A stretch of DNA of 64,000 bases from contig BPTK01000001.1 in assembly GCA_023705905.1 (NCBI GenBank), positions 8,799 to 72,798 on the forward strand, read 5' to 3'. The stretch's first letter is position 1, and the number at the start of each line of letters is the position of its first letter. The notes under the pieces are model-generated. The model did no database searches. It worked only from the letters and a program-made list of their open reading frames with translations, and was not told where the DNA came from. Shown piece by piece: positions 28,326-58,600 of this stretch. The position numbers and the translations under genes are program-made. This stretch comes from Candidatus Heimdallarchaeota archaeon. Lineage in GTDB: Archaea > Asgardarchaeota > Heimdallarchaeia > Heimdallarchaeales > Heimdallarchaeaceae.

Positions 28326-29048
28326 TCAACTATGTTTCTCTGTAAGAATTCTCATTTTTTCTTTAACTTCCTCAATTCTTCCTTGAGATCCAGCTAATTG
28401 ATAATTTTGGAGGGCATCTGAATAATATTTCAAAGCTAGTTGAGGTTTTTCTTCTTCAACAAAGAGAGCATTATAATATGCTAAATGAGCTTTAATGACC
28501 GGTTCATCAGAGCCTCTTTCACCCATAGTTTCAACAGCTTTCTTAAGAAAAACTTTTCTTCCTGAGATGTTCTTCTCTGCTGCAGCACGAGAGATATATG
28601 ATTTTGCTTTGCAATCCAGTTCTTCAGCTTTGATATCTATTCGCTGGTAAGCAATTGCAGCTTGTTCAAAATGAGAAGCAGCTTCAACAAATCTCTTTTC
28701 CTTCATAAGTTGGCGGGCAATAACACGTAAGATTTTTGCTTGCTGAGTGAATATTCTTTGGGATTCCGTAATCATACCTAAGCGATGGTAAAAACCACCT
28801 GATCGGCCCAAGTAATTTGCTGCCTCTAGTGCTTTGTTAAATTTAATAGCATCCATACCCAGATACTCATAATATGAAGCTTTTGCCAAATCTATCTGCT
28901 TTCTATTTTCACTATGTTTAAAAATTTCTATGGCTTTCTCAGCATATTCAGAAGCTTCGCCATACTTCTTCTGTTGAGCAGCTAAACGAGCTTTTCCTAA
29001 ATGTTCATTGGCCTTTTCTGCAGTAGATTTTTTTATTCCTTTAAACAA
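28326..29048 (-). CDS. TPR-repeat protein
   Basis: 240 aa, all-helical, with repeated A/Y/L-rich 34-residue-like units (AKASYYEYLGMDAIKFNKALEAANYLGRSG ... ALKYYSDALQNYQLAG). Confidence 0.5.
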   Translation of the reverse strand: MFKGIKKSTAEKANEHLGKARLAAQQKKYGEASEYAEKAIEIFKHSENRKQIDLAKASYYEYLGMDAIKFNKALEAANYLGRSGGFYHRLGMITESQRIFTQQAKILRVIARQLMKEKRFVEAASHFEQAAIAYQRIDIKAEELDCKAKSYISRAAAEKNISGRKVFLKKAVETMGERGSDEPVIKAHLAYYNALFVEEEKPQLALKYYSDALQNYQLAGSQGRIEEVKEKMRILTEKHS

Positions 29049-29203: not shown

Positions 29204-29962
29204 TTATTGAAATAATCTACGGCCATCTTCAAATTGAAGTTCCTCGATATCCGAAACAATTGATCGTTGTTTTAAACCTTTTATTACTACTACAGGTATC
29301 ATTTCTCCCGCCTGACCCATTACCAATTCAGCTGCTGAACACACTTCATCAGCTAGAGCCACAACCGTTGATTTAAGCTTGTAACCAAAAATATCTTCTC
29401 TTCCTTTTGCATCATCGATAACTGAAAAATTATAGGAACCAATTGCCACATTGATTGCACCGCGTCTTAAAGCTCTGCCATGGGTATCAGCTATTAACAA
29501 AGATAGATTCTTCTGAAAAAAATCAGATAGTTTCTTACCGATGAAAGATGCTGATTTGCTAGAATCAGTTGGAAGAGTCACAGCGCAATTAGGTTTGGAA
29601 TTTGATTGATCTACAGCAGAATTCGCACAGATCCATCCTTGTTTGGTTTGTGTTATAATGATATTATTTTCTACTTTTAGAAGCTTTGATGCTTCTGATA
29701 ATATAAGTTCAACAAGAGAAGGATCTTTTCCCGTTCTTCTTGCAATCAATTCAGAAATAGGTGAAGGGTTAAGGGATGATAGATGAAATTCCATGCCTTC
29801 AGCTCTAGAGATTATAGTATGAGCAATTACTATTATATCACCATCTGAGATGAGAACATCCGTTTTCCGAATGGAATCGATAATAAGGTCAGCTATATCA
29901 TCGCCTTCCTTAATTATTGGTAATTCCAATGGAATAATCTCAATATGATGCATATAATTCAC
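29204..29962 (-). CDS. cofE: coenzyme F420-0:L-glutamate ligase CofE
   Basis: 252 aa. DGDIIVIAHTIISRAEGMEFHL and the overall CofE-family layout. It is adjacent to an FrhB-family gene, and F420/FO genes sit elsewhere in the window. Confidence 0.55.
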   Translation of the reverse strand: MNYMHHIEIIPLELPIIKEGDDIADLIIDSIRKTDVLISDGDIIVIAHTIISRAEGMEFHLSSLNPSPISELIARRTGKDPSLVELILSEASKLLKVENNIIITQTKQGWICANSAVDQSNSKPNCAVTLPTDSSKSASFIGKKLSDFFQKNLSLLIADTHGRALRRGAINVAIGSYNFSVIDDAKGREDIFGYKLKSTVVALADEVCSAAELVMGQAGEMIPVVVIKGLKQRSIVSDIEELQFEDGRRLFQ

Positions 29963-29973
29963 CTTGAACGAAT

Positions 29974-31029
29974 TTATGCTGATTCTATAGGATCTAAAGC
30001 TTTAGCTATTTTTCTTTTTAATGAGGAGAGTTTGACAGCTGGAGCTAATGTTTCTTCCCATTTACTTTCATCAATTTTCTTTACATCTAATAAATTGTCT
30101 TTAAGAGCAAACTCGAATAACTCTTTTCCAGCTTTGGTTCTTATTAAAATGATGTTGCAATCATCAGCAACACCAATATTACCAATTGAGATATCTGCAA
30201 ATTCAGCTGCAAAGTCTTGGCAATATTTACATCCCTCTGCTTTAGCACCACTACATTCTTTGATTTTGATATCGGTCGTACCATCAGGATGTTCGAAGAA
30301 GAATTTCCCACGAGCACAATCAGTTTTTGTAAGATCGGGTGTAGAGAGACCTAGACTTTTAGATATAATATCTCTGAAACCATCTGGTTCATAACTGCTC
30401 ATACAAAACAAACCTATTTTGTATTTTACTCTGAAATCTGCTCCAAGGTTTTTCATGCTCACAATATTGGTTAAAGTTTCATTATGACATGGTAGACCAA
30501 CTACTGCAACCTTCTTCTTATCACTTAGTTTAATCGATGGAAGTTTAATAAGAACGGGGTTAAGAGTGTACTTAGATTTTGATGATTTTCGAATATCGAA
30601 CTCAGAAAGTGCCAAGATAGGCACGGGACTTAGTAAATCGCTTCCATGTGTGGTTACAAGTGCGCTGTCAATTTTTCCCTTCTTCATAGCTGTTAAGAGC
30701 AAAGTAGTAACTATACCACCATTTTGTGACCTAGAATGAATATCCTTATCTTTAGTTTTTCCTGTATAAACCTCCAAAATGGGTCCAAGCTCATCTGCAG
30801 GATATGTTGGTTGTTCAACTTTTTGCTTAAATCGCAAACATATATCTACACAAGCTCCGCAGGAAATGCAACCTCCAACAAGCTTAGGCTTTAGTTGCTC
30901 AATTGAAATAACATAAACGGGGCAAACAGCTTCACATCCTCCACAGGAGACACAGTAACCTGGTTTTATTACTTCACGGTTTAACATTGCAAAATTTCTT
31001 TTTCTTTTTCTTGGTTCAGTATTGCTCAT
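29974..31029 (-). CDS. coenzyme F420 hydrogenase/dehydrogenase beta-subunit family protein with two 4Fe-4S ferredoxin motifs
   Basis: CVSCGGCEAVCP and CISCGACVDIC clusters are followed by FrhB_FdhB-like N and C domains (SQNGGIVTTLLLTAMKKGKIDSALV). Confidence 0.6.
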   Translation of the reverse strand: MSNTEPRKRKRNFAMLNREVIKPGYCVSCGGCEAVCPVYVISIEQLKPKLVGGCISCGACVDICLRFKQKVEQPTYPADELGPILEVYTGKTKDKDIHSRSQNGGIVTTLLLTAMKKGKIDSALVTTHGSDLLSPVPILALSEFDIRKSSKSKYTLNPVLIKLPSIKLSDKKKVAVVGLPCHNETLTNIVSMKNLGADFRVKYKIGLFCMSSYEPDGFRDIISKSLGLSTPDLTKTDCARGKFFFEHPDGTTDIKIKECSGAKAEGCKYCQDFAAEFADISIGNIGVADDCNIILIRTKAGKELFEFALKDNLLDVKKIDESKWEETLAPAVKLSSLKRKIAKALDPIESA

Positions 31030-31146
31030 ATCGAATCATCTCTAAGTAAAGATTAGACTGAATAAGTTTAATCTATTTTTAAACTATGCGAGATGGATAT
31101 AAGAAAAAAAATGGTAAAAATTGTTGAAAAATAAAGAAAAAGAAGG

Positions 31147-32307
31147 TTAGACATCTTCAAGTTCACCAAGAAGGTATCTTTCACTACCAGATTGTTTAGA
31201 TTGTATATCCAATTCTCTTTCAGAGATAATCTCTCTTTCTAATCTATCTAGGGCCACTGCATGTGCACTGTAGACTCCGTAACCTTCTGCTTTTGAAACA
31301 TATGTATGACCTTTATCGGTGGATATTCTCAATCTTATTTGATAGAGAACGAAACCTCTAAACTTCTTTTTTGGAATAGATTTTGCGTGAATAAATAATT
31401 GTCCGGAATTACCAATCACAGATGAAAATTTCTTTACAAGATCCACTCCCATTTCAATAACTGATTCCATGTCCTCATCATCAACATCTCCAATTACTCT
31501 CACATAATATCCTTCAGTTTTTGGAGGGATACTTATGGTTTCGAGAAGATCTGTAGTTGTTAAAACTCCAACAGGATGGTTTTCCTCGTTTATGATAATT
31601 AACGTTTTATGATTGTTCTTGTAGAGTTTACTTATAGCTTCGAGAACCAACTCGTTTTCTTTACAACTGACCACTTCTTCAGTCATAATATCTCTAATAG
31701 GAGCTGTAAGAGGAGTTTGTTGCATAGCTGACCTATCACCTCTAGTTTGTTTAGAGGGAAAGGAAGGAATTAAAAGCTCAGCCATATCATGAGGGCTTAC
31801 AATACCTAATAGGTAATTATTTTCATCAACTACAGGTGCCCTTGAGATATTATTTGTCCTAGAAATTGCAATTAACCTTGCTGCTGTAGTATCAGGACTG
31901 ACACAAATAGGATTTGGTGTCATCACATCTTTCACAGTTTTATCTTTAAACAATTCAGCTGAGGTTCTAATGACATCAATATCCCTATAAACACCAATGA
32001 TTTTTCCATCATCTTCAACTGGAACAGTGTTTATCTTTGCAGACAAAAGAGCTCTCGCTATCTCATCAGCAGAGGAGTTCCTCACAACAGTTGGAACTTT
32101 TTGGAGTAAACTGGCTACTTTCGAACCAGATTGTATTCTAGATTGCCTTGTTATATTCTTCTTTGTAAGATAGCCAAAGAAGAGGCCTTTTTCGTCAAAA
32201 ACTAGAACTTCTCGAACATTTTCTTTAAAATATTCAAATACTTTTGATAATGGTTCATCAAGATTGATAGAAGTATACTCAGAAATAATCGATAAATCAG
32301 TACTCAT
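31147..32307 (-). CDS. CBS-domain protein (two CBS pairs) with a C-terminal HPF/RaiA (ribosomal S30AE)-like domain
   Basis: Four CBS-like units carry the spaced (V/I)xD..T(V/I)..D pattern. In the C-terminal 100 aa, YYVRVIGDVDDED ... LFIHAKSIPKKKFRGFVLYQIRLRISTDKGHTYVSKAEGYGVYSAHAVALDRLEREI matches HPF/YfiA (... VAEAESDDMYAAIDLAVDKLERQLRK). Confidence 0.5.
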   Translation of the reverse strand: MSTDLSIISEYTSINLDEPLSKVFEYFKENVREVLVFDEKGLFFGYLTKKNITRQSRIQSGSKVASLLQKVPTVVRNSSADEIARALLSAKINTVPVEDDGKIIGVYRDIDVIRTSAELFKDKTVKDVMTPNPICVSPDTTAARLIAISRTNNISRAPVVDENNYLLGIVSPHDMAELLIPSFPSKQTRGDRSAMQQTPLTAPIRDIMTEEVVSCKENELVLEAISKLYKNNHKTLIIINEENHPVGVLTTTDLLETISIPPKTEGYYVRVIGDVDDEDMESVIEMGVDLVKKFSSVIGNSGQLFIHAKSIPKKKFRGFVLYQIRLRISTDKGHTYVSKAEGYGVYSAHAVALDRLEREIISERELDIQSKQSGSERYLLGELEDV

Positions 32308-32382
32308 AAGCTAATACAAGTTTTTATGGTTATAAAAGATTCTTATAAGTTGAAAGAAAACAGAAGAAAGGGAGAAAGTTTT

Positions 32383-32991
32383 CTAAAGTATGTACTCTGT
32401 TCTAAATTTAAGATGTTCTTCACTATATTGCTTTCCTAATCGCCCAGCATGGTAGAATAGTTTATCAACATTATAAGCTGGAAGAGCTGAAGTTTCAACA
32501 TAGTCAAATCGGTGTAGTTTCGCAAAAGCTATAGCGTCATCACGTGAGACTGCTCGAGCATCTTTCAAATCATATTTATTTCCACACAGAATAATAGGGA
32601 TGTCTGGTACTCTGGAAAGAACTTCATTTGTCCAAATGTCAACATCGTCAAATGAGTTTTGATTAGTAATATCAAAAACTATAATCGCACATGTAGCACC
32701 TACATAGTATTTTGGTCGAAGATAAGTAAACATTTTTTGACCACCTGTATCCCAGCAAGATAATCTGATAGTTTCAGGGTCTGTATATATTTTCTTTAGC
32801 ATATTCTCATTCAATTGTTTTGGTGTAAAGGTTAATGTTTTTGTTAACCAACTTACACCTAATGTTGGTATGTAACTATGAATAAAGGTATTTAGTGTAA
32901 ATCTTCGTGCTAACGAAGTCTTGCCAACAAATGCTGAGCCAACACATATTATTTTTTGTAACTGATTCATCTTTTTATCTCCACAATACAT
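32383..32991 (-). CDS. Ras-superfamily small GTPase (Rab/Ras-like)
   Basis: G1 GSAFVGKTS, G3 WDTGGQ, G4 GNKYDL and G5 ETSAL. The likely start is the MNQLQK at 32970. Confidence 0.75.
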   Translation of the reverse strand: MYCGDKKMNQLQKIICVGSAFVGKTSLARRFTLNTFIHSYIPTLGVSWLTKTLTFTPKQLNENMLKKIYTDPETIRLSCWDTGGQKMFTYLRPKYYVGATCAIIVFDITNQNSFDDVDIWTNEVLSRVPDIPIILCGNKYDLKDARAVSRDDAIAFAKLHRFDYVETSALPAYNVDKLFYHAGRLGKQYSEEHLKFRTEYIL

Positions 32992-33826
32992 CTAATAAAT
33001 CTTGAATCAAATTTAATCCATCTAATCTCTGCCACTCTATTTTTATGGCCATAGGTACTTTCTGAGCAATTATGTACCTTAATCCTTCTTCTCCCATCTC
33101 CTTCTTCAAACAATCTAACATATTGTTAAGAAAATAAATAAATTCTCTCTTGATTTCACTTGTCGTAATTTTCTTTGTATCAACTTCACTTATATCAAAT
33201 CCCTCTTCAAGGGTCAGAGAATAAATTTCCTTCAGATAAGAATAATTTTCATCTAAATACGTTTGTAAATTTTTGCTGAACTTCTTATAAAAATCTTCAA
33301 TTTTCATAGAGTTTCTTTCTTCAATATAACTCTTTATCCCAACCCAGATAGAATTTAAGATGTTTTCAAACACCTCAACCAGATTCCGTTTGTCAATATC
33401 CTCAATATGCAAATCTAAAACATTCCACAACAAAAAAGAGTGAGAAAGTGACTCGGATACTTCACGTCTCCTAATACTTTCTAATTCTTTAAGAAAATCA
33501 TTTGAACTAGTTTCATCTGTAATTTCAAAAGCATTCATAAAAAGTTTCATGAAGAAAAACAATTGAGAAGAAATCATTTCTGTTGAATAATTTGGAGGGC
33601 TCAGTAATACAAACAAGAATGAGAATTTATGTTTAAACAGAATTTTTGTATTACCAAACTTCATAGCTTGAAGTTCATCTAAGGAGGTGTGTTTTTCAAC
33701 TTCAGAGTAAAATTGAAGTAAAAATCTAACTATATCGTCTACCTCTTGATCCTTTTTTTGAATGGTATGGGGACGACAAAAAAGCACTTCCATTTCATTC
33801 TTGTTTACTATGTAGAATCCAATCAT
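32975..33826 (-). CDS. hypothetical protein with a longin-like N-terminal domain; candidate GTPase regulator
   Basis: 283 aa. The N-terminal 110 aa (IGFYIVNKNEMEVLFCR ... FLLQFYSEV ... KFGNTKILFKHKFSFLFVLLSP ... TEMISSQLFFFMKLFMNAF) fit the beta-beta-alpha-beta-beta-alpha longin pattern, followed by a helical domain. It overlaps the downstream GTPase gene by 17 nt. Confidence 0.35.
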   Translation of the reverse strand: MIGFYIVNKNEMEVLFCRPHTIQKKDQEVDDIVRFLLQFYSEVEKHTSLDELQAMKFGNTKILFKHKFSFLFVLLSPPNYSTEMISSQLFFFMKLFMNAFEITDETSSNDFLKELESIRRREVSESLSHSFLLWNVLDLHIEDIDKRNLVEVFENILNSIWVGIKSYIEERNSMKIEDFYKKFSKNLQTYLDENYSYLKEIYSLTLEEGFDISEVDTKKITTSEIKREFIYFLNNMLDCLKKEMGEEGLRYIIAQKVPMAIKIEWQRLDGLNLIQDLLDVLWR

Positions 33827-33951: not shown

Positions 33952-36147
<2,196 letters not shown>

Positions 36148-41284: not shown

Positions 41285-41587
41285 ATGATATCACAAAAAC
41301 AATTTGAAGAGACACTTAAATCTCTCGAATCACATCCCGGAGTTAGAGGAGTGATTATTACTAGCAATGACGGTTTACCAATATCAAGCACACAAAACCT
41401 TAGTATGGAGATGAGAGAAAATGTTTCTGCTCTTGTTGCTTCACTTGTAGGGCGTGCTAAAGCAGTAGTAACAGAACTAGAAGAAGGTCACTTAAACTTC
41501 TTCACACTAGATACAAGTCATGGTGAGATTTTAGTTGCACCTGAAAATGAGTATGTATTGATAGTGTTACGAGATAAAAGGAAATGA
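41285..41587 (+). CDS. Roadblock/LC7 (MglB-like) protein
   Basis: 100 aa. HPGVRGVIITSNDGLPISS ... VSALVASLVGRAKAVVTELEEG ... HGEILVAPENEYVLIVL is the typical Roadblock fold. Confidence 0.65.
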   Translation: MISQKQFEETLKSLESHPGVRGVIITSNDGLPISSTQNLSMEMRENVSALVASLVGRAKAVVTELEEGHLNFFTLDTSHGEILVAPENEYVLIVLRDKRK

Positions 41588-41646: not shown

Positions 41647-42213
41647 ATGAGAAAAGACGCTTCAGGAAAAATGCATTTTAAACTGGTCTTTGTTGGACCA
41701 AGCTTGGCTGGCAAAACTACGCTACTTAAAAAACTACATACTGATGTAACTGGCATTAAGAAGGGAGGTTTAAACAGCATCGAAGATCCTTCAGGAAGGA
41801 CAATCTATTTTGATTTTAGTCCATTTATGGCAACATCTTCCGTCATTCTAGATATCTATACTGTAGCTGGTCAAAGAAGGCATAGACATCAGAGATCTCT
41901 GGTTTTGAAAGGAGTAGATGGATTGTTATTTGTAGCTGATTCCTCACGAGCTATGTTAGCTGATAATATAGAATCTGCAGTGGAACTGAAGAGTGAAGTG
42001 GGAGACAAAATTGGAGGAGAAATTCCGATCGTTATTGCATTAAACAAAAGAGACGCTCCTGATGCTATGGATAAAAAGGAATTAGTAGATGCTTTAGATT
42101 TGGGGATGAATATTCCAATATATGAGACCATTGCTGTTGAAGGGATTGGTGTAAAAAGATGTTTCCAGTCCTTAGCTAGAGAAGTACTGTTGAAGAAAGT
42201 TTATGCAGTATGA
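41647..42213 (+). CDS. small GTPase, MglA/Ras-superfamily, paired with Roadblock
   Basis: G1 GPSLAGKTTL, an MglA-like G3 YTVAGQ and G4 LNKRDA. It lies 60 nt downstream of the Roadblock gene. An alternative start is M9 (MHFKLVFVG). Confidence 0.65.
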   Translation: MRKDASGKMHFKLVFVGPSLAGKTTLLKKLHTDVTGIKKGGLNSIEDPSGRTIYFDFSPFMATSSVILDIYTVAGQRRHRHQRSLVLKGVDGLLFVADSSRAMLADNIESAVELKSEVGDKIGGEIPIVIALNKRDAPDAMDKKELVDALDLGMNIPIYETIAVEGIGVKRCFQSLAREVLLKKVYAV

Positions 42214-45822: not shown

Positions 45823-45903
45823 AATTGCACGCAAATTATTTTTCTTTTTATTTCGAAATAAATTTATAAACCTAAAATCATCACTAAGTTAAGGGAATAG
45901 TTA

Positions 45904-48411
45904 ATGAAAAGCAAATATAAAATCAAGAAAATTTTGTTATTGCTCCTTCCTCTGTTATTCTCAATCTTGAGTACATATATTGTATACTCAAGTCATTTTA
46001 GCAATTATCATCAACAGCATGAGAAAATATTGACTTCAACATCTCCAGATTATTCAATTATAAAAAATAACAGTTTGATTCTTACAGATCCTAACTTCAA
46101 AACAGATGAGTTCCTAGATCAATTTTCTTTAGATAGTGTCACTTATATTGGCTATCTTCAATGTGAATTAAATTTTGATTCAGAGTTTTATGACCTTGTA
46201 ATATTTTTTGCACCACAAGAGTATTATTCAAAATATAGTAATGTTGCAATAGAAAATAATTCAGTCATTTTGGATAAAACTTTTTCTACATCAAAAGGAA
46301 TAGATTTATTCCAAAATGTCACTTTTGAGTATATTATCGAAGATGAAAAAATAGAATCAAATATTTCAGCATGTAATTTTGCTGAAGTAGAGGATGTTCT
46401 AACTAGCGAATTATTAAAATACAGCTGGGATGAAACCCATGGTGAAATCTATTTATTTGTCTTACCAGATATGTTCAACCAGATATTTAATTTGATTCTG
46501 GAAAATCTAACCTATTATTTCTTACCATTAATCGAGTTTTCTGATGCATTCCTTGGTTCAAATCCCCCACATCAAATACAAAATCTCCTAAGAGAGAAGA
46601 GAGAAAAACTTGATCTATTTTTTGATTACAGTTTCAATAGTTCTAATCTGGAGGAAAGCTGGGTAAGACAGAATTTACTAGAAAGAAAGCTCATTGTTTT
46701 TGAGGAAAATTACAATGAGTACACATGGGCGCGTGTATTAATATTCTATACACTTTGTTTTAGCTTCTGTTATATTGTAATTAGCAATACAACTAAAACT
46801 TATATCAAATCACAAAAAGAAAAGATAGAATTTCAATATATTAGAGGAAACAAAAGAATGCATCTCATAAAGAATCTTGTCGTATCTGAGATTTTAATTG
46901 TGTTCTTTGCAATAACATTCAGCTTTATAATTTCTATTCTTATTATAGGACTCTCTTATCCAAATTTACTAGCTTTTGGTTATTATTATGGAATGAACAT
47001 TGCTTTGGTTAGTTCTATAGCTTTGTTTTACGCTAGCATTCAACTAATGATGCAGATGAAACACCTTACAAAACTCTATAGGAGAGTAAAAAACAGTGAA
47101 GAGACATTACTTAATAAAATCATCAGAATATTTTTGTGGACATTTGCTAATTTAGGTTCAGGAACAGTTCTTTATTTATTCTTATCAAATACCAATCAAA
47201 AAATCGAATCAAAACCAGATTTTTCACTTCTTATTGGGGGAATACTCGTAATATTGTCCATTCTTGTGATGTCAAAAAAAGGAATCATACGGATAGGAAA
47301 AGGAGTATCATATATATTTGTGAGAATCTTAAGAATTGGAAAATACATGCTTAAAACATTGGAAAAGATTACTAATTCAAATTATCGGTTAATTCAATTA
47401 CTCATATTGTTTGGAATTACAGGTTCTTTCTTTTTATCTGGTGCGGACACAATTGTAAATTACCATCATATAAATCAAGAATACAATAAGATTGGAGACC
47501 TATCAATCAATTATCCAGAAGTAGAAACACAGATAGTAGATTCACATTTAGAGATTTATGTAAACATCTCTTCCCATATTCAGCTCTTGAGAGCAAGCAT
47601 GGAATTTGTTAACGATGAAAATAGTTTTGTTTCGCATGGTATTCTGGTGTTCTTAATTAATGATAGTGCAATTTCAACAATCTTTAATTCTGATATTTTT
47701 CAGAAAAATTATGAAGGAACTCAAGAATCTCATCAAGTGGGGAATATTTTAGCTGCAAATTGGAATACGTCTATTATTAATAGAGCTTTTGCTGATTTAA
47801 CAGATAGTTCTCTTGAAGAATTGATTGAAATACCGTTACCAATTACTGATAAATCAGATTTTTATCCAACTAAAATTTATACGCCATCTGTAATTGATAT
47901 AGTAGATTTTGCACCATTTTTTTCGGGTATATCTCAAGAAAGACCGTTCATAATTATGAATGCAAATATTGAAGAGAATGCGACAAAACTTGATATATCT
48001 AGTATTTATCAAAATCTCTGGTTAAAGGATAATATTGATGTAAATCTATTTGCTGATAATCTTCAGAATTTAAATGAAGATTATAATTTACATATAGAAA
48101 TTGTTACTCAAGACAAAGATTCCATAATCACGGATGCATTTTGGATACCTTCAGTTTTGTCTAACTTCATCATCACTCTTTTCTCTATTTTTACATTATG
48201 TTTAGTTGTTCTATACCTTGGATATTACTTAGAAGTAATAGATGGACAATTAAAGAATTTCAGAACTTTCTTTGCAAGAGGTTTATCAATTAATAGGGGG
48301 ATATTTTTCGCGTTTTTACCACTGTTTATACTTACATTTTTGTATATTGTGATTGGATATTTGTTAGGGCTCTTGTTATTTTCGGTTGTTATGATCACAG
48401 TACAACCTTAG
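45904..48411 (+). CDS. ABC transporter permease, duplicated FtsX/MacB-like (YbbP-type), 835 aa
   Basis: TM1, then an extracytoplasmic domain of about 250 aa, then a 4-5 TM cluster, then a second extracytoplasmic domain of about 270 aa, then a 3-TM cluster. It is followed by a paralogous permease and a MacB/LolD-type ATPase. Confidence 0.5.
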   Translation: MKSKYKIKKILLLLLPLLFSILSTYIVYSSHFSNYHQQHEKILTSTSPDYSIIKNNSLILTDPNFKTDEFLDQFSLDSVTYIGYLQCELNFDSEFYDLVIFFAPQEYYSKYSNVAIENNSVILDKTFSTSKGIDLFQNVTFEYIIEDEKIESNISACNFAEVEDVLTSELLKYSWDETHGEIYLFVLPDMFNQIFNLILENLTYYFLPLIEFSDAFLGSNPPHQIQNLLREKREKLDLFFDYSFNSSNLEESWVRQNLLERKLIVFEENYNEYTWARVLIFYTLCFSFCYIVISNTTKTYIKSQKEKIEFQYIRGNKRMHLIKNLVVSEILIVFFAITFSFIISILIIGLSYPNLLAFGYYYGMNIALVSSIALFYASIQLMMQMKHLTKLYRRVKNSEETLLNKIIRIFLWTFANLGSGTVLYLFLSNTNQKIESKPDFSLLIGGILVILSILVMSKKGIIRIGKGVSYIFVRILRIGKYMLKTLEKITNSNYRLIQLLILFGITGSFFLSGADTIVNYHHINQEYNKIGDLSINYPEVETQIVDSHLEIYVNISSHIQLLRASMEFVNDENSFVSHGILVFLINDSAISTIFNSDIFQKNYEGTQESHQVGNILAANWNTSIINRAFADLTDSSLEELIEIPLPITDKSDFYPTKIYTPSVIDIVDFAPFFSGISQERPFIIMNANIEENATKLDISSIYQNLWLKDNIDVNLFADNLQNLNEDYNLHIEIVTQDKDSIITDAFWIPSVLSNFIITLFSIFTLCLVVLYLGYYLEVIDGQLKNFRTFFARGLSINRGIFFAFLPLFILTFLYIVIGYLLGLLLFSVVMITVQP

Positions 48412-48593
48412 TATTATTTACAGATACCCATCACTATTTTTCCTATTTCGTTTTCATTTCTTGCAACACAGATTATCGTTTTAAGTATAGTTCTCGTGAT
48501 TGCTGGGTTTATTTCATATAAAAAATTACAAAAACAAATCCCTGTTATTGGCTCCAATATTTACTCAATTATGCAAGAGGAGGTTTTTGATTC

Positions 48594-51242
48594 ATGAATA
48601 TGTTTAAATTTCTCCTAAAAGGACAAAGAAGAGTTATTATTTTCGAATTAATTGTACTAATTACTTTCTTTTTATCATCAAGCTTTTCTTATGGTTATTA
48701 TTTGAAGACTTATCGAACAGAATGGAACAATCTGTTAGAAGTACAAACAGAACCTGACTTAGAGATACAGATTTCGCAATCTATTGAAAACTATCTAATG
48801 AAAAGGGATGAACTACTAGAAAAAATAGAAAACTTTCAGTATTATTCAATTTCTATACTCCCTTCACATCTTTTTGAGCTAAAGGTAGATAACGAATCAA
48901 ATGAACTTTTTAATTTATACATTCTTAATTCTATGATATTAGAAAAATTAAATTTCTCATTATCTGGGAATCAAGTATTAATAGGTACAGATCAATTTAC
49001 AAATGTAAACTTAAGTACAATTCAAGCTAATTTCACTATACTTTCTGAATACAGTAATACGAATATCATTGGACATTTGAACGAAACCACACTTTATTCC
49101 ACTATTTTTGGGATCAGTAGTGGAAATATTGCGGAAAGCTCAGAAAATATAAGCTTAGTAATCTCAGAATCCTATTTTTCAACACTGCTTTCTTCAATTG
49201 ACACTGAAATTTTACTAAATATAACAGATAATAATCTTACTTATGCTTACTATGTTTTTTCGTTAGATAAGACTAATTTAATGGACAGTTCTCCAAAGAG
49301 TCTGAATAAAGTTTGTAGAGAATGGGGTCTTGAAAGAATTACAGTGTTTTTTCAACTTTACTATCAACAAATAAATCAATTTGCTAGTTTTGGTCTAGAT
49401 ATTAAACCGGTGCTTTTCGATAAATTGAACGATTTATCAAGTAGAATGAATGTCATTCTACTTAATTCAACCGTAGTATTATTTTTTCTTTTCTTTATCA
49501 TAATTCAAGTTTTTCACCAAATGCTTAAGAATAATATTTCAGCCTTCAATAAAATTATTAGTATATTCTCTTCAAGAGGATTAAAAAAACGACAGGCAAG
49601 AATCCAAAGTTTTCTTATACATACTTTAGTATTAGTTTTAGCAGATATAGTATCGCTAGGATTTACTTTTCTTTTTCTCTATTATTTTGAACTTTCTATG
49701 TGGAGTTTTTCTTATACAGTTATCTTAATATCAAATAGCAGTCTCTTTGTAATTAATTTAATATTGCAAATTTCTTTAGTACAACAAATAAATCAAAATA
49801 CTAAACAAGAAGTAGACAAAAAAACAAAGAATAAATCAAGATCAAACACCTTAGATAAGTCAATAAAGATAGGTATTGGAGTACTATTTTTGATTATCGT
49901 ACTGACAATTCTCTCTTTTAATCTAAAGTTTTTGAACTTATCTAATATTTCTATTAGCTCTTTATGGATAATATTTGTTAGTTTAGGAGGGTTAATCATT
50001 TTTATAATGATTATTCCATTCATAATACAAAATTTTATTTTGCAACTTATTCAACATCTACTGAAATATATCTCTCTAATATATACATTTTCAAAAAAAC
50101 TATTTTCAAGTTTGAATAGACAAAAGTATCAAATCTGGAGGATTATCTTCATTCTTCAAGTTTCCTGGTTTCTCATGATTTCAAGTTACACAACCCTCAT
50201 AGTATATCAAGAACAGTCCAAAGCAAGTGCATATTGCTATAATGTATCAATCATGATAGAAACGTCCGCTGTATCAGATGTGAAATTTTTAACTAAAGAT
50301 TGTTTATCTTTAACATCTTATATTGAACCTAAATATGAAACACCGACAGAAGTTAGTGCGATATTTATATATTTAGAAAGTCCAACTTCTTTCTTTAATG
50401 GGACAAATTTCTCTGAGAACTATTTCAAGAAAATGAGTAATTTTCAGGTATTTTCAAAGCTTAATTTATCTGAAGAGTATTTCATCACAACAAGACAAGA
50501 AGCTAAAATGATGGGATATGATATTGACGATATTGTTAGTTTGTACAAAAATGATTTAAATGGAACTAGAATTGAGGAGAGAAAGATACTGTTAGATATA
50601 GCAGATTTTGTTCCTTTTTTCTCCATTATTTTTGATTCTGACAATACTAAACTTTACTTGATGAATTATAATTCTTCATCACATATAATAGGTTTGGATA
50701 ATTATGCAATACATAGTTTTTTAGCAAAAAACGAACATGAAGCTGAACAGATTTTCGTAAGTATAAGAGAAAAACAGCACATTTTCAAAACTATACACAG
50801 TTTCTCATATTCCGATATCGAGGATAAAGTTACACATAATTTCCTTTTACCTGAGTCAGAATTACCTATCTACTTTTTGTCCCTATTAATTCCAGGAATA
50901 CTAATAATCATGCTGATAAATATTCGAAGAGAAGGATATTACTTGTTTTCATTTTTATATAATAAAGGATTAAAGATCAGCACAATAAGAAACAACTTCT
51001 TTTTATGGTTTTTTATGCAATTAACTTCAATTACATTAATATCCTATATTTATTCAATAATAGCTCAACAGAGTATAATTTATATTTTAAATTTGCTTTT
51101 TACTGTACCAATTCACTTTGTTTTTAGCTGGGTACAACTAGGATTGTTTTTAATAATTCTCTCTTCAGTATTAATGTTCATACTACCTTACAACTGGAAT
51201 AAAACTAAAAAATATATCATACAGAAAAATAAAGGAATATAA
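48594..51242 (+). CDS. ABC transporter permease, duplicated FtsX/MacB-like, 882 aa (paralog of 45904..48411)
   Basis: Same two-ectodomain plus two-TM-cluster architecture as the upstream permease. It ends 4 nt before the ATPase gene. Confidence 0.5.
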   Translation: MNMFKFLLKGQRRVIIFELIVLITFFLSSSFSYGYYLKTYRTEWNNLLEVQTEPDLEIQISQSIENYLMKRDELLEKIENFQYYSISILPSHLFELKVDNESNELFNLYILNSMILEKLNFSLSGNQVLIGTDQFTNVNLSTIQANFTILSEYSNTNIIGHLNETTLYSTIFGISSGNIAESSENISLVISESYFSTLLSSIDTEILLNITDNNLTYAYYVFSLDKTNLMDSSPKSLNKVCREWGLERITVFFQLYYQQINQFASFGLDIKPVLFDKLNDLSSRMNVILLNSTVVLFFLFFIIIQVFHQMLKNNISAFNKIISIFSSRGLKKRQARIQSFLIHTLVLVLADIVSLGFTFLFLYYFELSMWSFSYTVILISNSSLFVINLILQISLVQQINQNTKQEVDKKTKNKSRSNTLDKSIKIGIGVLFLIIVLTILSFNLKFLNLSNISISSLWIIFVSLGGLIIFIMIIPFIIQNFILQLIQHLLKYISLIYTFSKKLFSSLNRQKYQIWRIIFILQVSWFLMISSYTTLIVYQEQSKASAYCYNVSIMIETSAVSDVKFLTKDCLSLTSYIEPKYETPTEVSAIFIYLESPTSFFNGTNFSENYFKKMSNFQVFSKLNLSEEYFITTRQEAKMMGYDIDDIVSLYKNDLNGTRIEERKILLDIADFVPFFSIIFDSDNTKLYLMNYNSSSHIIGLDNYAIHSFLAKNEHEAEQIFVSIREKQHIFKTIHSFSYSDIEDKVTHNFLLPESELPIYFLSLLIPGILIIMLINIRREGYYLFSFLYNKGLKISTIRNNFFLWFFMQLTSITLISYIYSIIAQQSIIYILNLLFTVPIHFVFSWVQLGLFLIILSSVLMFILPYNWNKTKKYIIQKNKGI

Positions 51243-51246
51243 GCAA

Positions 51247-51933
51247 ATGAATAAAGAAAAGGAAACTATCATCCAAATTTTTGATTTACTTCATGTTTAT
51301 AAAGGGAAAGTGGAAACAATAGCACTTCCTGGCATAAATTTATCCGTTAAAAGGGGAGAACGTTTAGTTATAAGGGGTAAGTCAGGTGTAGGAAAAAGTA
51401 CTCTACTCTATTGTGTTGCAGGAATACTTAAACCAACTACAGGGAAAATCCTTGTAAAAAGTAAAGATATTACAGATTTTAATGAAGATCAGCTAGCAGA
51501 TCATCGATGTTTAACAGTAGGGTTAATTTATCAATCATATAATTTAGCACCGTTTTTAAACGTTAGAGAAAATATTGAGTTTCCTATGGTATTGGCGAAA
51601 ACTCAGGTAGAAAAGAGAAAAAAACGCATTAAAGAACTTTCAGAATTTCTAGAAATTGAAAGATATCTAGAACAAAAACCTGAATATCTAAGTGGGGGAG
51701 AACAACAACGTGTAGCAATTGCTGTAGCTCTTGCAAATAATCCTCCCATAATATTAGCAGACGAACCAACAGGGAACATCGATGAAGAAGCATCTAAAAT
51801 GGTTTATGAGCATCTTTCACAACTATGTCAGGTCTACAACAAAACGTTAGTATTAGCTTCTCATGATCCTAAAGCAAAGGATTATGCAGATAGAGAGATT
51901 TTTCTTTCAAAAATAAAAACTGACAACCTTTAA
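51247..51933 (+). CDS. ABC transporter ATP-binding protein (MacB/LolD-type)
   Basis: Walker [13 protein letters not shown]-loop, ABC signature [15 protein letters not shown], Walker [12 protein letters not shown] and H-loop LASHD. Confidence 0.85.
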
Positions 51934-52014
51934 TTTGAGAAAAATTTGTGAGAATAATACTTAATTCTTCTTTGCTAGCCATAATAATAAGGTTATGAAA
52001 TCTCCACTTATTAC

Positions 52015-52129
52015 ACCTACATATTAACCTGACACAAATCACTAATCATAACATCTTAAGATGACTAGTGGGATTGCACCGATTCATAGCTACCTACATA
52101 TTAACCTGACACAAATCACTAATCATAAC
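52015..52129. repeat. perfect 38-bp direct repeat pair (acctacatattaacctgacacaaatcactaatcataac) flanking a 39-bp unique segment
   Basis: Repeat 1 is 52015-52052, repeat 2 is 52092-52129 and the spacer is 52053-52091. It sits in the 684-bp intergenic region between the ABC ATPase gene and the giant-protein gene. Confidence 0.8.
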
Positions 52130-52617
52130 CAGTAACCCAGATCGTAAAAAGCTACTCCTACAATTAAAGTTAAACCAGCTACACCAATTGTTACAAAGAA
52201 AGCTATCTTTTCTAAATTCTCTGGGATATCAAAATTAGGAATAATCTTGGATAAGGCTACGAAACCAAAAAAGAGGAAACCAACAGACAATATTACGTGG
52301 ATAAGAAAAACCTAATACTATTGAATTGTGAACCAACCCAGAAATAGTATGAATCACTTTCATACCAACCACCTATACAATTTAAAAGAACTAAAGATAT
52401 AGCAATAACAGTTTAAAGGAGAGAAATAAAATAATAAGCAGGTTTAGCATAAAACGGTTTTTGTTCACTTGACATTAAGTAAACTGGTGCCACTTGTATA
52501 AAAAACATTCTTGGGAAGATTTAGAGTGTAAACGTAAGTTTTATTAAAAAAACATAAGAAAAACGATGAAATTTTACACGGTATATATATCAAATTGAAA
52601 ATGAGTACTATAAGAAC

Positions 52618-55600
52618 ATGTGTACCATTAACAATCGTATTAGTTATTTTACAATTTTCATAATGCTTTCATCTTATCTACTGTGTTCTGTTAGTTTGAC
52701 ACCCTCTGTATTAGATACATCTGCTAATATGCAAGCACCTATAATAAACGATGAAATTATTTACATTTATAATACATCAGACACCAGGCAAGAATTCATA
52801 CTAAAAAACAAAAGTCTAGATCTGGGAAGGTTCAACAATTTATCACTAGTATTTGAAATTTCAGGCGAAAAGACTGACGTAAATGGAATTGAAGTATCAT
52901 TCATAATCAATTCAACGAAGATTGATTTCATTCTTGCGAAACATTATCAAAATAGCGGAGTACAAGTCTTATCTCAAGCTTTTGAATATCCAAATGAGTT
53001 TACTGGTTCCATGAATATAACTATTGTATGCAAGGCAAAAGTATTTTCAGGAGGTTCTGGTACACTTCGTATAATAAATTCAACATTAATTGAAAAATTG
53101 GCAATACCCGAGATCCAAAGCAACCCGAAAATAATTCCTGTATATCCCAATTGGTTGATTTTTGATGGTTATGCCTTTGGAGAAAGAAATAGGACTGTAA
53201 AGACTGCGTTTCTAAATACAAAAGAAAACCAGAGTCTCAATCTTTCCGTTTTTTTTGTGTTCAATGATATCCAAACAGTCTCAAAAAAGATAATTTTGGA
53301 AATAAACAGCGAAATAGTTGATATTAGGGAAATTAAGGTTGGGACAAATTTGCTAATCTTTCAAAATCTCAAAATTGAACAAGGATTTAACCTTATACAG
53401 TGTTACTTTAGTTTTCAATATTGCAATAGTTTAATTGAAATTAAAGATATAAATTTCTTAGGAAATTCATACTCGTTTTTGGACTTTCTTCCCCTTAATT
53501 CATACGATTGGATTTATTGGAGAGGAGATGGAATAAATCATTCAATTGATTTATCGGCACTAAAACCTCAAAGTACTGAAAGATCTCTGAAAATATGGTT
53601 TTATTTAGATTTTGGTTGTTTGGGAACAATAATCTCGCCTTCAATTCATTATGAGATTCATGATGGATATGTGAAACTTTGTGAAGGATACATTTCAGAA
53701 CAGTCCCAAAAACAATCATTTAGCCAAATTATAGAACAAACATGGACTTCATTTCATGACACACAATTGAAGATATGTCTTTATGGAAGTACAGAAGGAG
53801 AAGTCGTCTTTTATTTATTGAATACAAGTAGAATTGAAATAGAGTCTATTCCTGAAATAACTACAGAGACCTACGAGACCATCCTCATAGAAGAAGAAGA
53901 AATTAGAACACCACAATTAAGTTATTTCGAAATTAGCATATGTGAGCGATTCTTTTTCAATAATTCTGAAACAATGCAGTACAGCTTCTTCTTACTATTC
54001 GATTTCATTAGGAAAGATCATGAAGGAATCAGCTATATCAAAGTTGAAGTTTATGAAGGAAACTTCCTGCTAATTGAAGAAACTGTTGATAAGCAAGGAA
54101 AAACTAATCTCACCGCCTTATTTTCTGCAAAAAAAGTTAATTCTTTGGTGAATATTACTCTATCAATATTTGGTGCTGGAAATACGATAATAATTCGGAA
54201 CATGTATATTCAAATTAAACTTTTTGTGGAAGAACAAAATACAAATAATGAAGATGATTCAAATACTAATTTTCTCAGAGATAAATGGATTCTGCAAGGT
54301 ATTTTATTGCTTTATCAAGCTTCAATGTTATCGATTTTAGTTCTTCAAGAATTAAGAAGAAGAAGCAAATATGTACATGAACTGGGAGTAAAAGAGTTAA
54401 TAATAAATATTCTTCATTCGAAAAAATATAAGAAGAAACAGCTTCTCAGTCTTACTTTGAAAATCATCAGTTTTATAATCCCGTTTGCAATCACTTTCTT
54501 TTTATTAAAAGAATTCAATTATTTGACTTCTTCATTAAGTCAAATAATATGCTCAATAGTTTGTGGAAGTATTTTCTTTGCTTTAATGGATTTGTTAATG
54601 TATAGAATAGGTAAAAAAAGCCGAAGTCTTTTATCGAAAGGTGCAACAGTTAGAAAGAAAAAAACTGCACTAAATGTGTATGAAAAAATAAGAAACTGGT
54701 TGGCAATATCTAAGAAAAGAAGGCAAAGAATAATTTTGATTGTTGGGGTGCTTACACATCTTATATCTATAAATTTTATTATGAGTTTTTTATTGAATCA
54801 CTCCATATTAGGGGATTATTATTTTCACGTAGAGTGCATTGATTGTATTGCTTGGGGGATGAATCTGTCTATATTGGGGATATTTCTTTCGATTTTTCCT
54901 TGTTTTTTTATCATTAAACTTGGTTTTAATATGATTTCCTTCGAAGACAATATTATAAAATCCTTGCTACTAGGATTGTTAGTTTTATCAACACTGTTCT
55001 TTTCTTGGGGTGTATTTCTTTATTTTATCATAATAAACAAATCTTACTTAGACTCAAACATTTATTCAATTCTTTGGACACTCGCAATGCCAGTGGGTTT
55101 CGCTTTCTTGTTAGGAATTGTGTATAGGTTAGGAAAGAGCAAAGCAAAAGAGCTTAATATTACATTCCTTTCGCTACTAAAATGTGGTAAATTTACTGTA
55201 AATCAAGAAGAAATAACCCAAGCTTTTCAGAATGGTAATTCATCGAGAATGGATTATCAGAAAGTTCAGGATGATGTTCATAGAGAGGTGTTATATCATT
55301 CAATTCAGAAGAATCTTGTATTAAATTCATCAATATCTTTTAAGGGTCTTTCAAGAATTGCTAATGTACCTGAGAGCAAGATTGAAGGATTGCTCACAGA
55401 TATTCTAGATGAAATTCTGAATATGGGGACTATTGCTATAGCGAATAAAACCTTTACTCTAAAGAAAATTGGATCAGATAACATTTTCAGCATTAATGGA
55501 GGTTTAGATAAGAGGGATGTAGCTAATTGCAACAAAAAACATACCAGCATTGATTTAGGGCCCATCAAATTTGAGGAAATTGGAGGAAAACAAAACCTAG

Positions 55601-58600
55601 TAGCACTTTTCAAAAATATAGATATAAAATTCAACGATGAGAAAGTAGCACTTAGAGCATATTCGATGCTGGGGCATATTTTTGACGGTTATGTACATCA
55701 GTATAAAGAAGGAAATTATTTGTTATCTCTATTAAACTCTTTTTCTACTAAAATTGGAAATAAGATAAAGAATCAATCAATAAACGAATCAAATCTATGT
55801 CTCCTATCGGAAGGGGAATACAATCGAATACTTTCTGATTTTGGAAGACAAATAAATCTTAGATATGCAAAAGGAAGGAGATTCAAATCTTGGATACATG
55901 GTTTAGTTGGGTCGTTGATGACAAGATTTTTTGAAAGAATGACACTAAGCATGGATGAAAAGAAAGAATCACTTATTGAACCGTTTAATGAGATTACCAA
56001 CAAAGATACAACGATTCATCTCGATTTAGATATAGGACCAAATCATAGATCCTTAGATATTTTAGGGAAAACAGAAAGTGGAGGGTATATTTTTGGAGAG
56101 AATAAGTATACACAAGGTTCTTTAATTTCTGCCTTGAGTAATGCAACTAAAGTACACAAGGGTTCAGATTTACTAGCAAATCACAATCAAAGGGTTGATT
56201 ACGTAACAACAACTGAAAATCAAGGATTCGATTTATATGTCAGATGGGGGGATTTTATCCTTGATTTAAAGGAAGAATTGTATGTTTTAAACAACCGATA
56301 TAAAACATGGCCAAAGAATAATAAGAACAATAAAATTATACAAAATCAGCTAAGAGTATTGAGAGAGTGCATGAGTATTGGAGGAATGACAGAAATCGTA
56401 AAACTCATGCAAATAGAGATGGTTGAGCAATTTGGGAAGTGTGTCAATTTTGAACTGTTCGACATAACAAAACTAGCTTGTTATAAACTGGAAAAAATAC
56501 AAATCCCAGAAAACATCAAACAATTCTTCATACCTGAAACAACATCAATATTATTACCTTACATAAAAGTTGAGAATCTTAAAATTCCTTTTATTCCAAT
56601 AAAAGAGTCACTAGATTATAAGAGAGAAGGCGGAAGAGGAAGTTACTATACTTACTTGATATTTGGATTTTTGGATAATGAAAAAAAAGAAAAAGAAAGG
56701 TATACTAAATTCGGGTATCAACTACTTACTCCTGATAAGTTCGAGAAATATAATTTTGGTTTAGAACTAATAGAAGGACTACCCTTGGATCAAGGAACAG
56801 TAAATTGTAAAGTATTCACGGTCAAAAGGGGGAAAACTAAAAGTGTTTCAATAAGAAAACTGAGAAATGAGAAGATTGCAATAACACTGCCTATAAATGG
56901 AAAAATGGTAACAATAGATGATCTTAGATTTAAAAATATAATATCAGAAAAGAGAAGAAGAAGAATATCTAATAGAAGGTTTTTAAGAAAACTCATATCA
57001 TCGAATGATAATTTCAGAAAAACTGAAATAGAAGAAGAAATTGAACAGTATTTTGAGAAAGGTATTATACGTGAATTCAATGTAACAATGATTGATTCTT
57101 TAACTTGGGAAGCTTTAGGCTACTTATTACCAAAAACAATTGATGAGATAAATTCAAAGGTTCCAGCAGCAGATATAGCTTTTTATCTCAGATTAAAGGG
57201 GAATTTTGAATATTGTAAGCAAGATATCATTGTATCATTTAAAAGCAGAAATTTAAATTTGACACATGTTTCAGATCCATCAAAGCCCTTACCTAAACTC
57301 TATAAACTGGGAGTAGCAGACATCATAAGAGCAGATGTGGAGCGACAGATAATCAGCCAAAATGACTATACAGTAGATGACGTACTTAAGAACATAGAGA
57401 AAAGTTGCAAAGATTACAATTATGAAAGTGAATTGTTAAGAAAGTTTGTTTCACCATTTATGTTAATAGAGTTGATGAAAAGTGAATGTTTTGAACAGCA
57501 TTCTAATGAACTTTATTACAACTTTCGGAAATATTTTGATGCTCATAAAGAGATAAAATTAGTTAAAGACCCCTTAGATGAAGATAAGATCATTGATCCC
57601 AGAATAAGTATTTCATCAGCACGAAATCTACTATTCGATTTCTTTAAGTTTCAAGAATTTAGGAGCATTAATCAGAATTGCGCAGATAATGAGAAGATTG
57701 ATAGCATTACTTATAACAAGATTATTAACAACAAAATTAAGAACTATGAAATTCAAAGACTTAGAAGTCTTCTAGTTTTTATGGAAGATAACAATAAAAA
57801 ACCAATTTGCAAAATTACTCCTTTCTGGGCTGTTATTTCTGAAAAAGTTATACCAAAGACCCTCAAAAGGTACATACTTTGCAATGGAAAAATAATTCCT
57901 GTAAAGTATAGAACAAATTTTGGTGGAAATAGCATCTATCCAATGATTTCAAGTAGATTTACAAGTATCAGAACTATCAGCTCAGGAAAAAAGGAAAATA
58001 GATATTTGTTTATGCAGTCTGTGCTAGGAGTATTAGCAGGACTTTCTTTTCAACCGAAAACAAAAAAGAGAAAATTAAGCGCAAAAACCTCTTTTGAAAT
58101 AGGAAACATCATGAAAGATTCATACAAAAACCTTCTATTCCCAACAAACAATAAGAATAACAATTTAAGAGCAAGTCGAATCGCAGTTAATGAATTAAGG
58201 ACCTTTAGAAAACAATTACGTGAAGGTGTTCAAGAACATCAGAATTCTAGTTACAAGAGATATGGAGAGAAGGTTGTAGGAGCTTTTATTTCTAGAGCAA
58301 AGGATTTCAAAACGAACAAAGGAATACTCAAAAGAGATATTCTTGTGATAAGGTTATATATAAATGGATATTCAAGAATACACTTTGGAGGGAAAGATGT
58401 TGAAGTCTTAAAACCCAGTTATTCTTTGTTCAGTATACAAAAATCAAGTGGTTTAGGAGATATGGAAGGCATTGAGACAGTTCTTTCCTTGAACAAGTTA
58501 CAATTTCTTGAGCTAAAAAGCAAATTAGAAGGAAAAATACCATGGTCCAAAGAGGATAAGGGAATCACAGAACAAGAACTCTGCAAAACTAGTTTTATGA

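Follow-up and report, generated by a model that had tools for sequence, protein, structure and literature searches.

A Heimdallarchaeal four-CBS protein with an HPF/RaiA-like C-terminal domain is a probable ortholog of the archaeal ribosome hibernation factor HibA/AHA

The archaeal ribosome hibernation factor HibA was found by cryo-electron microscopy on 70S ribosomes from stressed cells of Pyrococcus abyssi (Madru et al., Nat Commun 2026, PMC13324472), and the same family was described independently, as AHA, in ribosomes of Haloferax volcanii (Souza et al., bioRxiv 2026, PMC12934967). We describe here a member of this family from a Candidatus Heimdallarchaeota archaeon. Its gene lies at 31147-32307 on the minus strand of a 64,000-nucleotide stretch of contig BPTK01000001.1 (positions 8,799 to 72,798), which we call the window and to which all coordinates below refer. 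Based on architecture, fold, homology, and conservation of signature residues, we conclude, with a probability of about 0.88, that this gene is the Heimdallarchaeal ortholog of HibA/AHA.

HibA is PAB0961 in P. abyssi (PDB 9SR9-9SRF) and TERMP_00697 in Thermococcus barophilus, and it consists of four CBS domains (residues 1-269) followed by an HPF/RaiA-like domain (residues 270-392) (PMC13324472). The HPF-like domain lies in the 30S channel for mRNA and tRNA, where it touches h44, h28, h24, h23, uS12, uS9, uS19, uS11, uS7, and eS28; relative to bacterial HPF, it carries two insertions and makes many more contacts with the ribosome (PMC13324472). On the 50S subunit, the CBS module was seen in three places: the peptidyl-transferase center (PTC; via loop 190-207), uL5, and the L1 stalk. 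HibA inhibits in vitro translation, for which its C-terminal domain is needed, and deletion of hibA in T. barophilus doubles the regrowth lag and lowers stationary-phase 70S ribosomes by about 60% (PMC13324472). The dissociation constants of the HibA CBS module are 12 μM for AMP, 65 μM for ADP, and 113 μM for ATP, with the binding site at the CBS3/CBS4 interface (PMC13324472), and AMP has also been seen bound at the CBS3/CBS4 junction of the AHA tetrad (PMC12934967).

The HibA family is present in 47% of 4026 archaeal genomes from all major lineages, with Asgardarchaeota included in the distribution figure, and standalone HPF/RaiA-like proteins are present in a further 8% of archaeal genomes (PMC13324472). 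HibA/AHA is recorded in 17 phyla, with Asgardarchaeota and Hodarchaeales among the groups named (PMC13324472, PMC12934967), and the AHA study places both AHA and HPF homologs in Asgardarchaeota, again including Hodarchaeales (PMC12934967). An initial annotation of the window had expected an archaeal or Asgard HPF copy to be unusual, which these surveys contradict.

The coding sequence in the window is complete. In the list of open reading frames (ORFs), the minus-strand ORF spans exactly 31147-32307, running for 386 codons from an ATG to a TAA stop (31147-31149), and encodes 386 amino acids. A search with the whole protein finds PDB 9SR9 chain H, an entry that carries the name "Dehydrogenase" and is P. 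abyssi HibA on the 70S ribosome, with an E value of 2.7e-44 (query residues 9-368 against chain residues 12-376). The protein also matches PDB 9L96 chain a (9l96_a) with an E value of 4e-27, and both matches include the C-terminal domain. Because the latter match is weaker and falls in two stretches, this haloarchaeal-type chain is more distant from the window protein than is Thermococcales HibA, to a representative of which the window protein is 30% identical (E=4e-47). The features found in the protein are those of HibA/AHA: four tandem CBS units, an HPF-like C-terminal domain, full-length homology to a characterized member, and a long CBS3 loop of the HibA/AHA type (the loop was assessed for its presence). 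Publicly available names of the homologs ("CBS domain-containing protein," "Inosine-5'-monophosphate dehydrogenase," "predicted transcriptional regulator," and "Dehydrogenase") are uninformative or misleading.

The HPF/RaiA-like C-terminal domain (31192-31521, minus strand) was delimited by AlphaFold2 topology, Foldseek, profile searches, and a below-threshold match to PF02482. In the full-length AlphaFold2 model, which was built on a 37-sequence alignment and has a mean predicted local distance difference test (pLDDT) score of 80.9, the CBS units are followed by a strand (residues 266-273), a helix (277-298), three strands (301-316, 319-330, and 335-343), and a second helix (345-372). CBS tetrads dominate the Foldseek matches of this full-length model, and therefore the C-terminal domain was modeled alone; the model of the C-terminal 125 residues has the identical order of elements, with a pLDDT of 84.9. 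[quoted passage not shown] That annotation had also assigned the C-terminal 100 residues to the domain; it was right about the domain, but the size comes to about 110 residues, slightly above that figure, and an acidic tail of 14 residues follows. The stretch it had quoted, VSKAEGYGVYSAHAVALDRLEREI, corresponds to residues 337-360, which take in strand 4 and the first part of helix 2, and is aligned by HMMER with HPF chain 9sda_9 in the register it had suggested, and the IxG-x-V strand it had pointed out is VIGDV at residues 270-274, inside strand 1. The tail (residues 373-386; 31150-31191, minus strand) reads S-E-R-Y-L-L-x-E-L-E-D-V and is modeled with low confidence (pLDDT <50 at residues 370-386). 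Its residues R377 and Y378 are nearly invariant among orthologs, and it aligns with the tail of HibA.

Profile searches tie this domain to HibA and, more distantly, to bacterial HPF. A profile built from 16 sequences of the C-terminal domain and searched against PDB sequences matches 9sr9_H at E=5.4e-22 and 9l96_a at E=4.5e-9, followed by two bacterial HPF chains at E=0.17-0.34; the only further matches were RecA chains, without a significant individual domain. When the same profile was run against 1.84 billion cluster representatives, 203 were matched at E≤1e-3. The listing gave 149 new proteins; 84 of them have 340 residues or more, with the domain at the C terminus, and 53 are shorter than 200 residues. 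The 203 representatives are mostly proteins of 350-410 residues with the domain at the C terminus, plus short standalone forms, which is also the pattern in the literature. With a broader profile made from 60 C-terminal domains of the family, the E value for HibA is 1e-35 and that for 9l96_a is 4.8e-22, and 18 of the 22 remaining matches listed are bacterial HPF, RaiA/YfiA, HI0257, or protein Y chains. The best bacterial match, HPF 9t0z_9 (E=4.7e-4), covers the whole domain (profile positions 12-114 against chain residues 11-112), and RaiA/YfiA, HI0257, and protein Y follow at E=0.003-0.03. At the level of profiles, these values moderately support homology of the domain family to bacterial HPF/RaiA. 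The fusion of a CBS module to an HPF domain, which the initial annotation had proposed, is thus upheld by full-length homology to HibA as well as by the matches of the C-terminal domain alone, which go far beyond a chance resemblance.

PF02482 (Ribosomal_S30AE) is the top Pfam match for the isolated C terminus, at 15.2 bits and an E value of 0.036. The Pfam search that the initial annotation had recommended gives a divided answer: the single sequence stays below threshold, while 42 of 60 family domains scanned singly match PF02482 (best E=3e-7) and the next commonest family is matched by only 4. An NCBIfam scan of the full-length protein yielded CBS-containing families and no others, each with a score well short of its cutoff. 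Foldseek comparison of the domain model with the PDB gave 13 matches at E≤1e-3, of which 12 are HPF, RaiA, or plastid pY (6eri_BV, 5mmj_y, 8uu4_w, 8fmw_W, 4hei_A, 6qbz, 5ngm_Av, 8rd8_D, 7m4z_v, and others). These HPF-type matches are mostly ribosome-bound structures and have TM scores of 0.53-0.73; for 6eri_BV the E value is 7e-6 and the TM scores are 0.63/0.73.

The residues that are invariant or nearly so in the domain across the 37 aligned sequences are K309, PKKKFRG (312-318), R325, R327, T330, and EGYG (341-344). They fall in a pattern, K-F/L-R-G ... R-x-R ... T-D-R/K-G ... G-E-x-Y/W-G, that is common to the window protein, HibA, and 9l96_a. Strands 2 and 3 are long (301-316 and 319-330), as is helix 2, which is consistent with extra segments. 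The lower query-normalized than target-normalized TM score of the domain model is likewise consistent with segments additional to those of bacterial HPF.

The N-terminal part of the protein is a CBS module of four units, as the initial annotation had described: Pfam recognizes four CBS stretches (E=1.2e-40), and four CBS units are seen in the AlphaFold2 model. CBS1 (about residues 8-53; 32149-32286, minus strand) and CBS2 (about residues 62-120; 31948-32124, minus strand) are placed by Pfam and the model together. The ribose-binding position of the G-h-h-T-x-x-D motif in CBS1 (residue 51) varies among orthologs, and in the CBS2 motif GVYRDID, D111 is kept in 36 of 37 sequences. CBS3 (residues 125-179; 31771-31935, minus strand) is the best Pfam CBS stretch and carries the motif GIVSPHD, with D174 invariant (37/37), while CBS4 (residues 204-258; 31534-31698, minus strand), also identified by Pfam, carries GVLTTTD, with T250 and D253 both invariant (37/37). 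Between CBS3 and CBS4 is a long flexible loop of about 24 residues (residues 180-203; 31699-31770, minus strand), which was identified from model confidence (pLDDT <50 at residues 181-196) and from its alignment with HibA residues of about 185-212, and which corresponds in position to the PTC loop of HibA. Its Q-T-x-G-D-R core is conserved within the Heimdall orthologs. In the PDB, the best structural match of the CBS module by Foldseek is ribosome-bound SriA, followed by MJ1225, AMPK-gamma, and Dri. By homology with the characterized proteins, the window protein is expected to bind adenylates, and in its CBS3/CBS4 pocket AMP is probably preferred over ATP.

Compared with the known systems, the window protein is most similar to Thermococcales HibA. 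Both have four CBS domains, a long CBS3 loop, a C-terminal HPF/RaiA-like domain with the KFRG...R.R..TD.G...GE.(Y/W)G core, and a short tail, and they are nearly equal in length (386 versus 392 residues). They differ in that identity is about 30%, the loop has another sequence, and the host of HibA is a hyperthermophile, whereas that of the window protein is a mesophilic low-GC Asgard archaeon. AHA (HVO_2384 of Hfx. volcanii), compared by its description, also has an AMPK-gamma-like set of four CBS domains and an HPF domain in the A/P-site region of the 30S subunit. The bacterial and plastid HPF/RaiA proteins (YfiA, protein Y, and PSRP1) share the fold, family-level similarity (E=4.7e-4), and, in characterized homologs, the small-subunit site, but identity is only about 12-17%, and the window domain is fused to an N-terminal CBS tetrad instead of having the standalone or long-HPF dimerization form. 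A bacterial standalone or long-HPF architecture is in fact ruled out, as the domain follows a 260-residue CBS tetrad and only a 14-residue tail comes after it.

The other ribosome-bound CBS tetrads with adenylate pockets are SriA-D (PDB 9ZNF/9ZNG/9ZNI), ARC-P/ARC-A, and Dri (PDB 9E6Q). SriA is the closest of these to the window CBS module (Foldseek E=1.9e-20, target-normalized TM 0.79), and SriC, SriD, and Dri also match. These factors, however, lack an HPF domain and use their CBS domains and short occlusion elements to block the ribosome, and the ARC preprint (10.64898/2026.01.19.700304) describes CBS-only factors that are not of the HibA/AHA family. The HPF-like domain rules out a CBS-only factor of the Sri/ARC/Dri type for the window protein, whose resemblance to SriA and Dri is confined to the CBS module. 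In published surveys, Sri/ARC/Dri and HibA/AHA are largely mutually exclusive phylogenetically. AMPK gamma/SNF4 has a similar four-CBS disc (Foldseek E of ~1e-16, TM of ~0.5/0.65), and the nucleotide-binding Asp/Thr motif positions are retained in CBS2-4 of the window protein. In contrast to AMPK gamma, the window protein has an extra HPF domain, implies no kinase alpha or beta partners, and is only ~18% identical.

With the same probability of about 0.88, judging from its homologs, the window protein would be a ribosome hibernation factor working as HibA/AHA does. Like the characterized proteins, it is predicted to bind ribosomes and to inhibit translation. The HPF domain, lodged in the small-subunit mRNA/tRNA channel, would block the mRNA path and the decoding center and overlap the A and P sites, while the CBS disc would reach the large subunit at the positions of P/E-site tRNA, from which the long CBS3 loop might enter the PTC. 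A single polypeptide bridging both subunits in this way could hold idle 70S ribosomes together in a translationally silent, protected state when cells starve or enter stationary phase, and AMP at CBS3/CBS4 may tune engagement or release to the energy state.

Orthologs are numerous in this lineage. We found 49 of them in Heimdallarchaeia, from metagenome-assembled genomes, with 52-93% identity to the window protein. A scan of species-representative genomes, which used clade-specific peptide patterns and returned only Heimdall-group relatives, gave 27 species-level loci with intact orthologs of the same length; all but a few generically labeled ones are Heimdallarchaeota. The nearest of these loci are 89-91% identical, and those of complete Candidatus Heimdallarchaeum genomes are 52-53% identical. 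On contig JBHLQZ010000084.1, labeled Candidatus Thorarchaeota, there is an ortholog with 63% identity, which is in the same range as the Heimdallarchaeota matches and may reflect a binning or labeling error or a transfer. Within the 64-kb window, neither a second copy nor a separate CBS or HPF gene was found, so that the HibA-like gene is single-copy there.

Transcription signals suggest that the HibA-like gene has its own promoter. The archaeal TATA-box-like element TTTTATAA (32330-32337, minus strand), read from the sequence, lies 22 nucleotides upstream of the ATG. Its position is kept in 8 of 8 aligned loci, including relatives with 58-61% protein identity, among which the surrounding intergenic sequence is otherwise diverged. 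Just 3' of the stop codon is a T-rich tract (31101-31146, minus strand) that could be an archaeal oligo-T terminator. Because of the conserved TTTTATAA box and the T-rich tracts after the stop, the gene appears to be transcribed separately, with a leaderless or very-short-leader mRNA. An operon with the upstream GTPase gene or the downstream F420 genes (described below) is unlikely, given the gene's own conserved TATA box, the T-rich tracts 3' of it, and the unrelated neighbors outside the lineage. A combined scan for sigma-70 promoters and intrinsic terminators, bacterial models that are not relevant to an archaeon, gave fewer sites than in shuffled sequence and no terminator of relevance.

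The gene order on the minus strand is CDC48, longin-like, Ras-like GTPase, HibA-like, FrhB-like, CofE, and TPR. Upstream of the HibA-like gene are a Ras/Roc-type small GTPase (32383-32991; Pfam Ras E=4.6e-44), a 283-residue protein with a weak, sub-threshold longin match (32975-33826; Fuz_longin_1 E=8e-4), and CDC48 (33952-36138). Downstream are an FrhB/FdhB-type homolog of the coenzyme F420 hydrogenase/dehydrogenase beta subunit with 4Fe-4S motifs (29974-31029), the F420-0:gamma-glutamyl ligase CofE (29204-29962; E=4e-66), and a TPR protein (28326-29048); all six neighbors are on the minus strand. Relatives down to 52% identity have the same order, and in their genomes the whole block of ~13 kb is collinear. 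Two distant family members have entirely different neighbors: ribonucleotide reductase/NrdR/archease at one locus and PyrBI/radical-SAM/Cas6 at the second. In view of this collinearity and the different distant neighbors, the neighborhood is best read as within-lineage synteny and not as family-wide linkage.

Several other features of the window deserve mention. The ORFs of the Ras-like GTPase and the longin-like protein overlap by 17 nucleotides and form a eukaryote-like pair that is conserved 5' of the HibA-like gene in Heimdall relatives. The F420-related FrhB-like and CofE genes are a pair in a non-methanogenic Asgard lineage and are also conserved in relatives. At 9 kb from the HibA-like gene, on the plus strand, a Roadblock/LC7 protein (41285-41587; E=1.3e-20, with a weaker LAMTOR5 match) is followed after 60 nucleotides by an Arf/Ras-like small GTPase (41647-42213), an arrangement that resembles MglB/MglA or Ragulator/Rag pairs. 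From about 45900 to 59400 (plus strand) the GC content is 27-31%, compared with about 35% elsewhere, and the GC skew turns positive around 54-58 kb. This low-GC stretch has three very large ORFs (835, 882, and 2268 residues) that have no Pfam match at E≤1e-4, with an ABC-transporter ATPase among them at 51247-51933; the stretch might be an island of surface-protein or transporter genes, or DNA of foreign origin. No tRNA genes and no Rfam families at gathering threshold were found in the 64-kb window (1-64000).

Several observations weigh against the conclusion that the window protein is a hibernation factor of the HibA/AHA type. Its identity to characterized HibA is only 30%, and the sequence of its PTC loop is not conserved with that of HibA. 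The S30AE score of the single sequence (15.2 bits) is below the Pfam gathering threshold of 23.7, so that the domain is not a Pfam S30AE member by cutoff, and an NCBIfam scan of the isolated C terminus gave no match. The structural comparison rests on predicted models, and the Foldseek copy of the PDB, which ends at 2026-04-08, apparently before the release of 9SR9, does not list the HibA entries. The characterized members are HibA and Hfx. volcanii AHA only, and the Asgard members are known from sequence alone. For HibA itself, loop deletions did not significantly change in vitro inhibition (PMC13324472). In addition, AMP and ATP had no clear effect on the binding of HibA to ribosomes (PMC13324472), and the energy-sensing step is therefore hypothetical. 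The coupling of adenylate sensing to ribosome silencing that the initial annotation had put forward thus stands only in part: AMP is bound by HibA and AHA, and the same link is proposed, also as a hypothesis, by the authors of both the HibA and the AHA work (PMC13324472, PMC12934967), but a nucleotide effect on HibA ribosome binding was not seen.

Of the other explanations, the one that deserves most attention is that a HibA descendant has been reused in Heimdallarchaeia as an adenylate-sensing regulator of a non-ribosomal partner, such as the Ras-like GTPase/longin-like pair or replication and recombination proteins. In Heimdall genomes the gene is always directly downstream of the GTPase and longin-like genes, and in Thermococcales, HibA came down together with proteins of DNA replication and recombination, and a sequestering partner was discussed (PMC13324472). 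However, the HPF signature residues shared with ribosome-bound HibA and 9l96_a are invariant, the ~13-kb block is wholly collinear, so the adjacency may be no more than inherited gene order, a conserved TATA box belongs to the gene itself, and its neighbors at non-Heimdall loci are unrelated. We therefore consider reuse unlikely. Still less likely is a coupling of small-GTPase nutrient signaling to AMP-sensing hibernation, suggested by the GTPase and longin-like genes next to the HibA-like gene and by the Roadblock/Arf-like pair 9 kb from it, a gene arrangement for which inherited order is an equally good explanation; if true, it would be an archaeal forerunner of Rag/Ragulator-type translation control.

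It might also be argued that the protein is a generic CBS regulator whose C-terminal domain has an ACT-like or other ferredoxin-like fold and resembles HPF by chance, since small domains of the beta-alpha-beta type are common, the single sequence falls below the S30AE threshold, and homologs bear public names such as "IMP dehydrogenase," "transcriptional regulator," and "Dehydrogenase." The similarity to IMP dehydrogenase, however, is confined to the CBS region (TIGR01302, residues 112-291, 59.3 bits versus a cutoff of 481.5) and does not extend to the catalytic TIM barrel, which rejects that public annotation, and the domain family matches HibA at E=1e-35 and bacterial HPF at E=4.7e-4 over its full length. 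An ACT or ferredoxin-like assignment without S30AE is the outcome that the initial annotation had said would speak against it. It was not obtained, because no ACT or ferredoxin-like family appeared in any test (Pfam scans at E≤10 and Foldseek matches), and PF02482 is the sole recurring family. The chance-resemblance explanation is thus largely refuted. A decaying or unexpressed remnant with no present function is the least credible alternative of all, given an intact ORF, same-length orthologs with invariant motifs in 27 species-level genomes, and a conserved promoter element. The structural and functional reading of the initial annotation is supported as correct, and in effect it rediscovered HibA/AHA from the bare sequence.

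The HibA/AHA family shows that bacteria have the HPF silencing module in common with archaea, where it is attached to an adenylate sensor resembling AMPK-gamma. Publications of 2025-2026 already cover the fusion, the mechanism, and the occurrence in Asgard archaea, and the window protein is an under-annotated ortholog of a family already known. As the family, the ribosome structure, the phenotype, and the Asgard presence are in print, no new question is opened by it, and its value lies mainly in correcting the annotation. Heimdallarchaeia are the archaea closest to eukaryotes, and the ortholog found here may also help in asking which translation-control machinery the archaeal ancestor of eukaryotes possessed.

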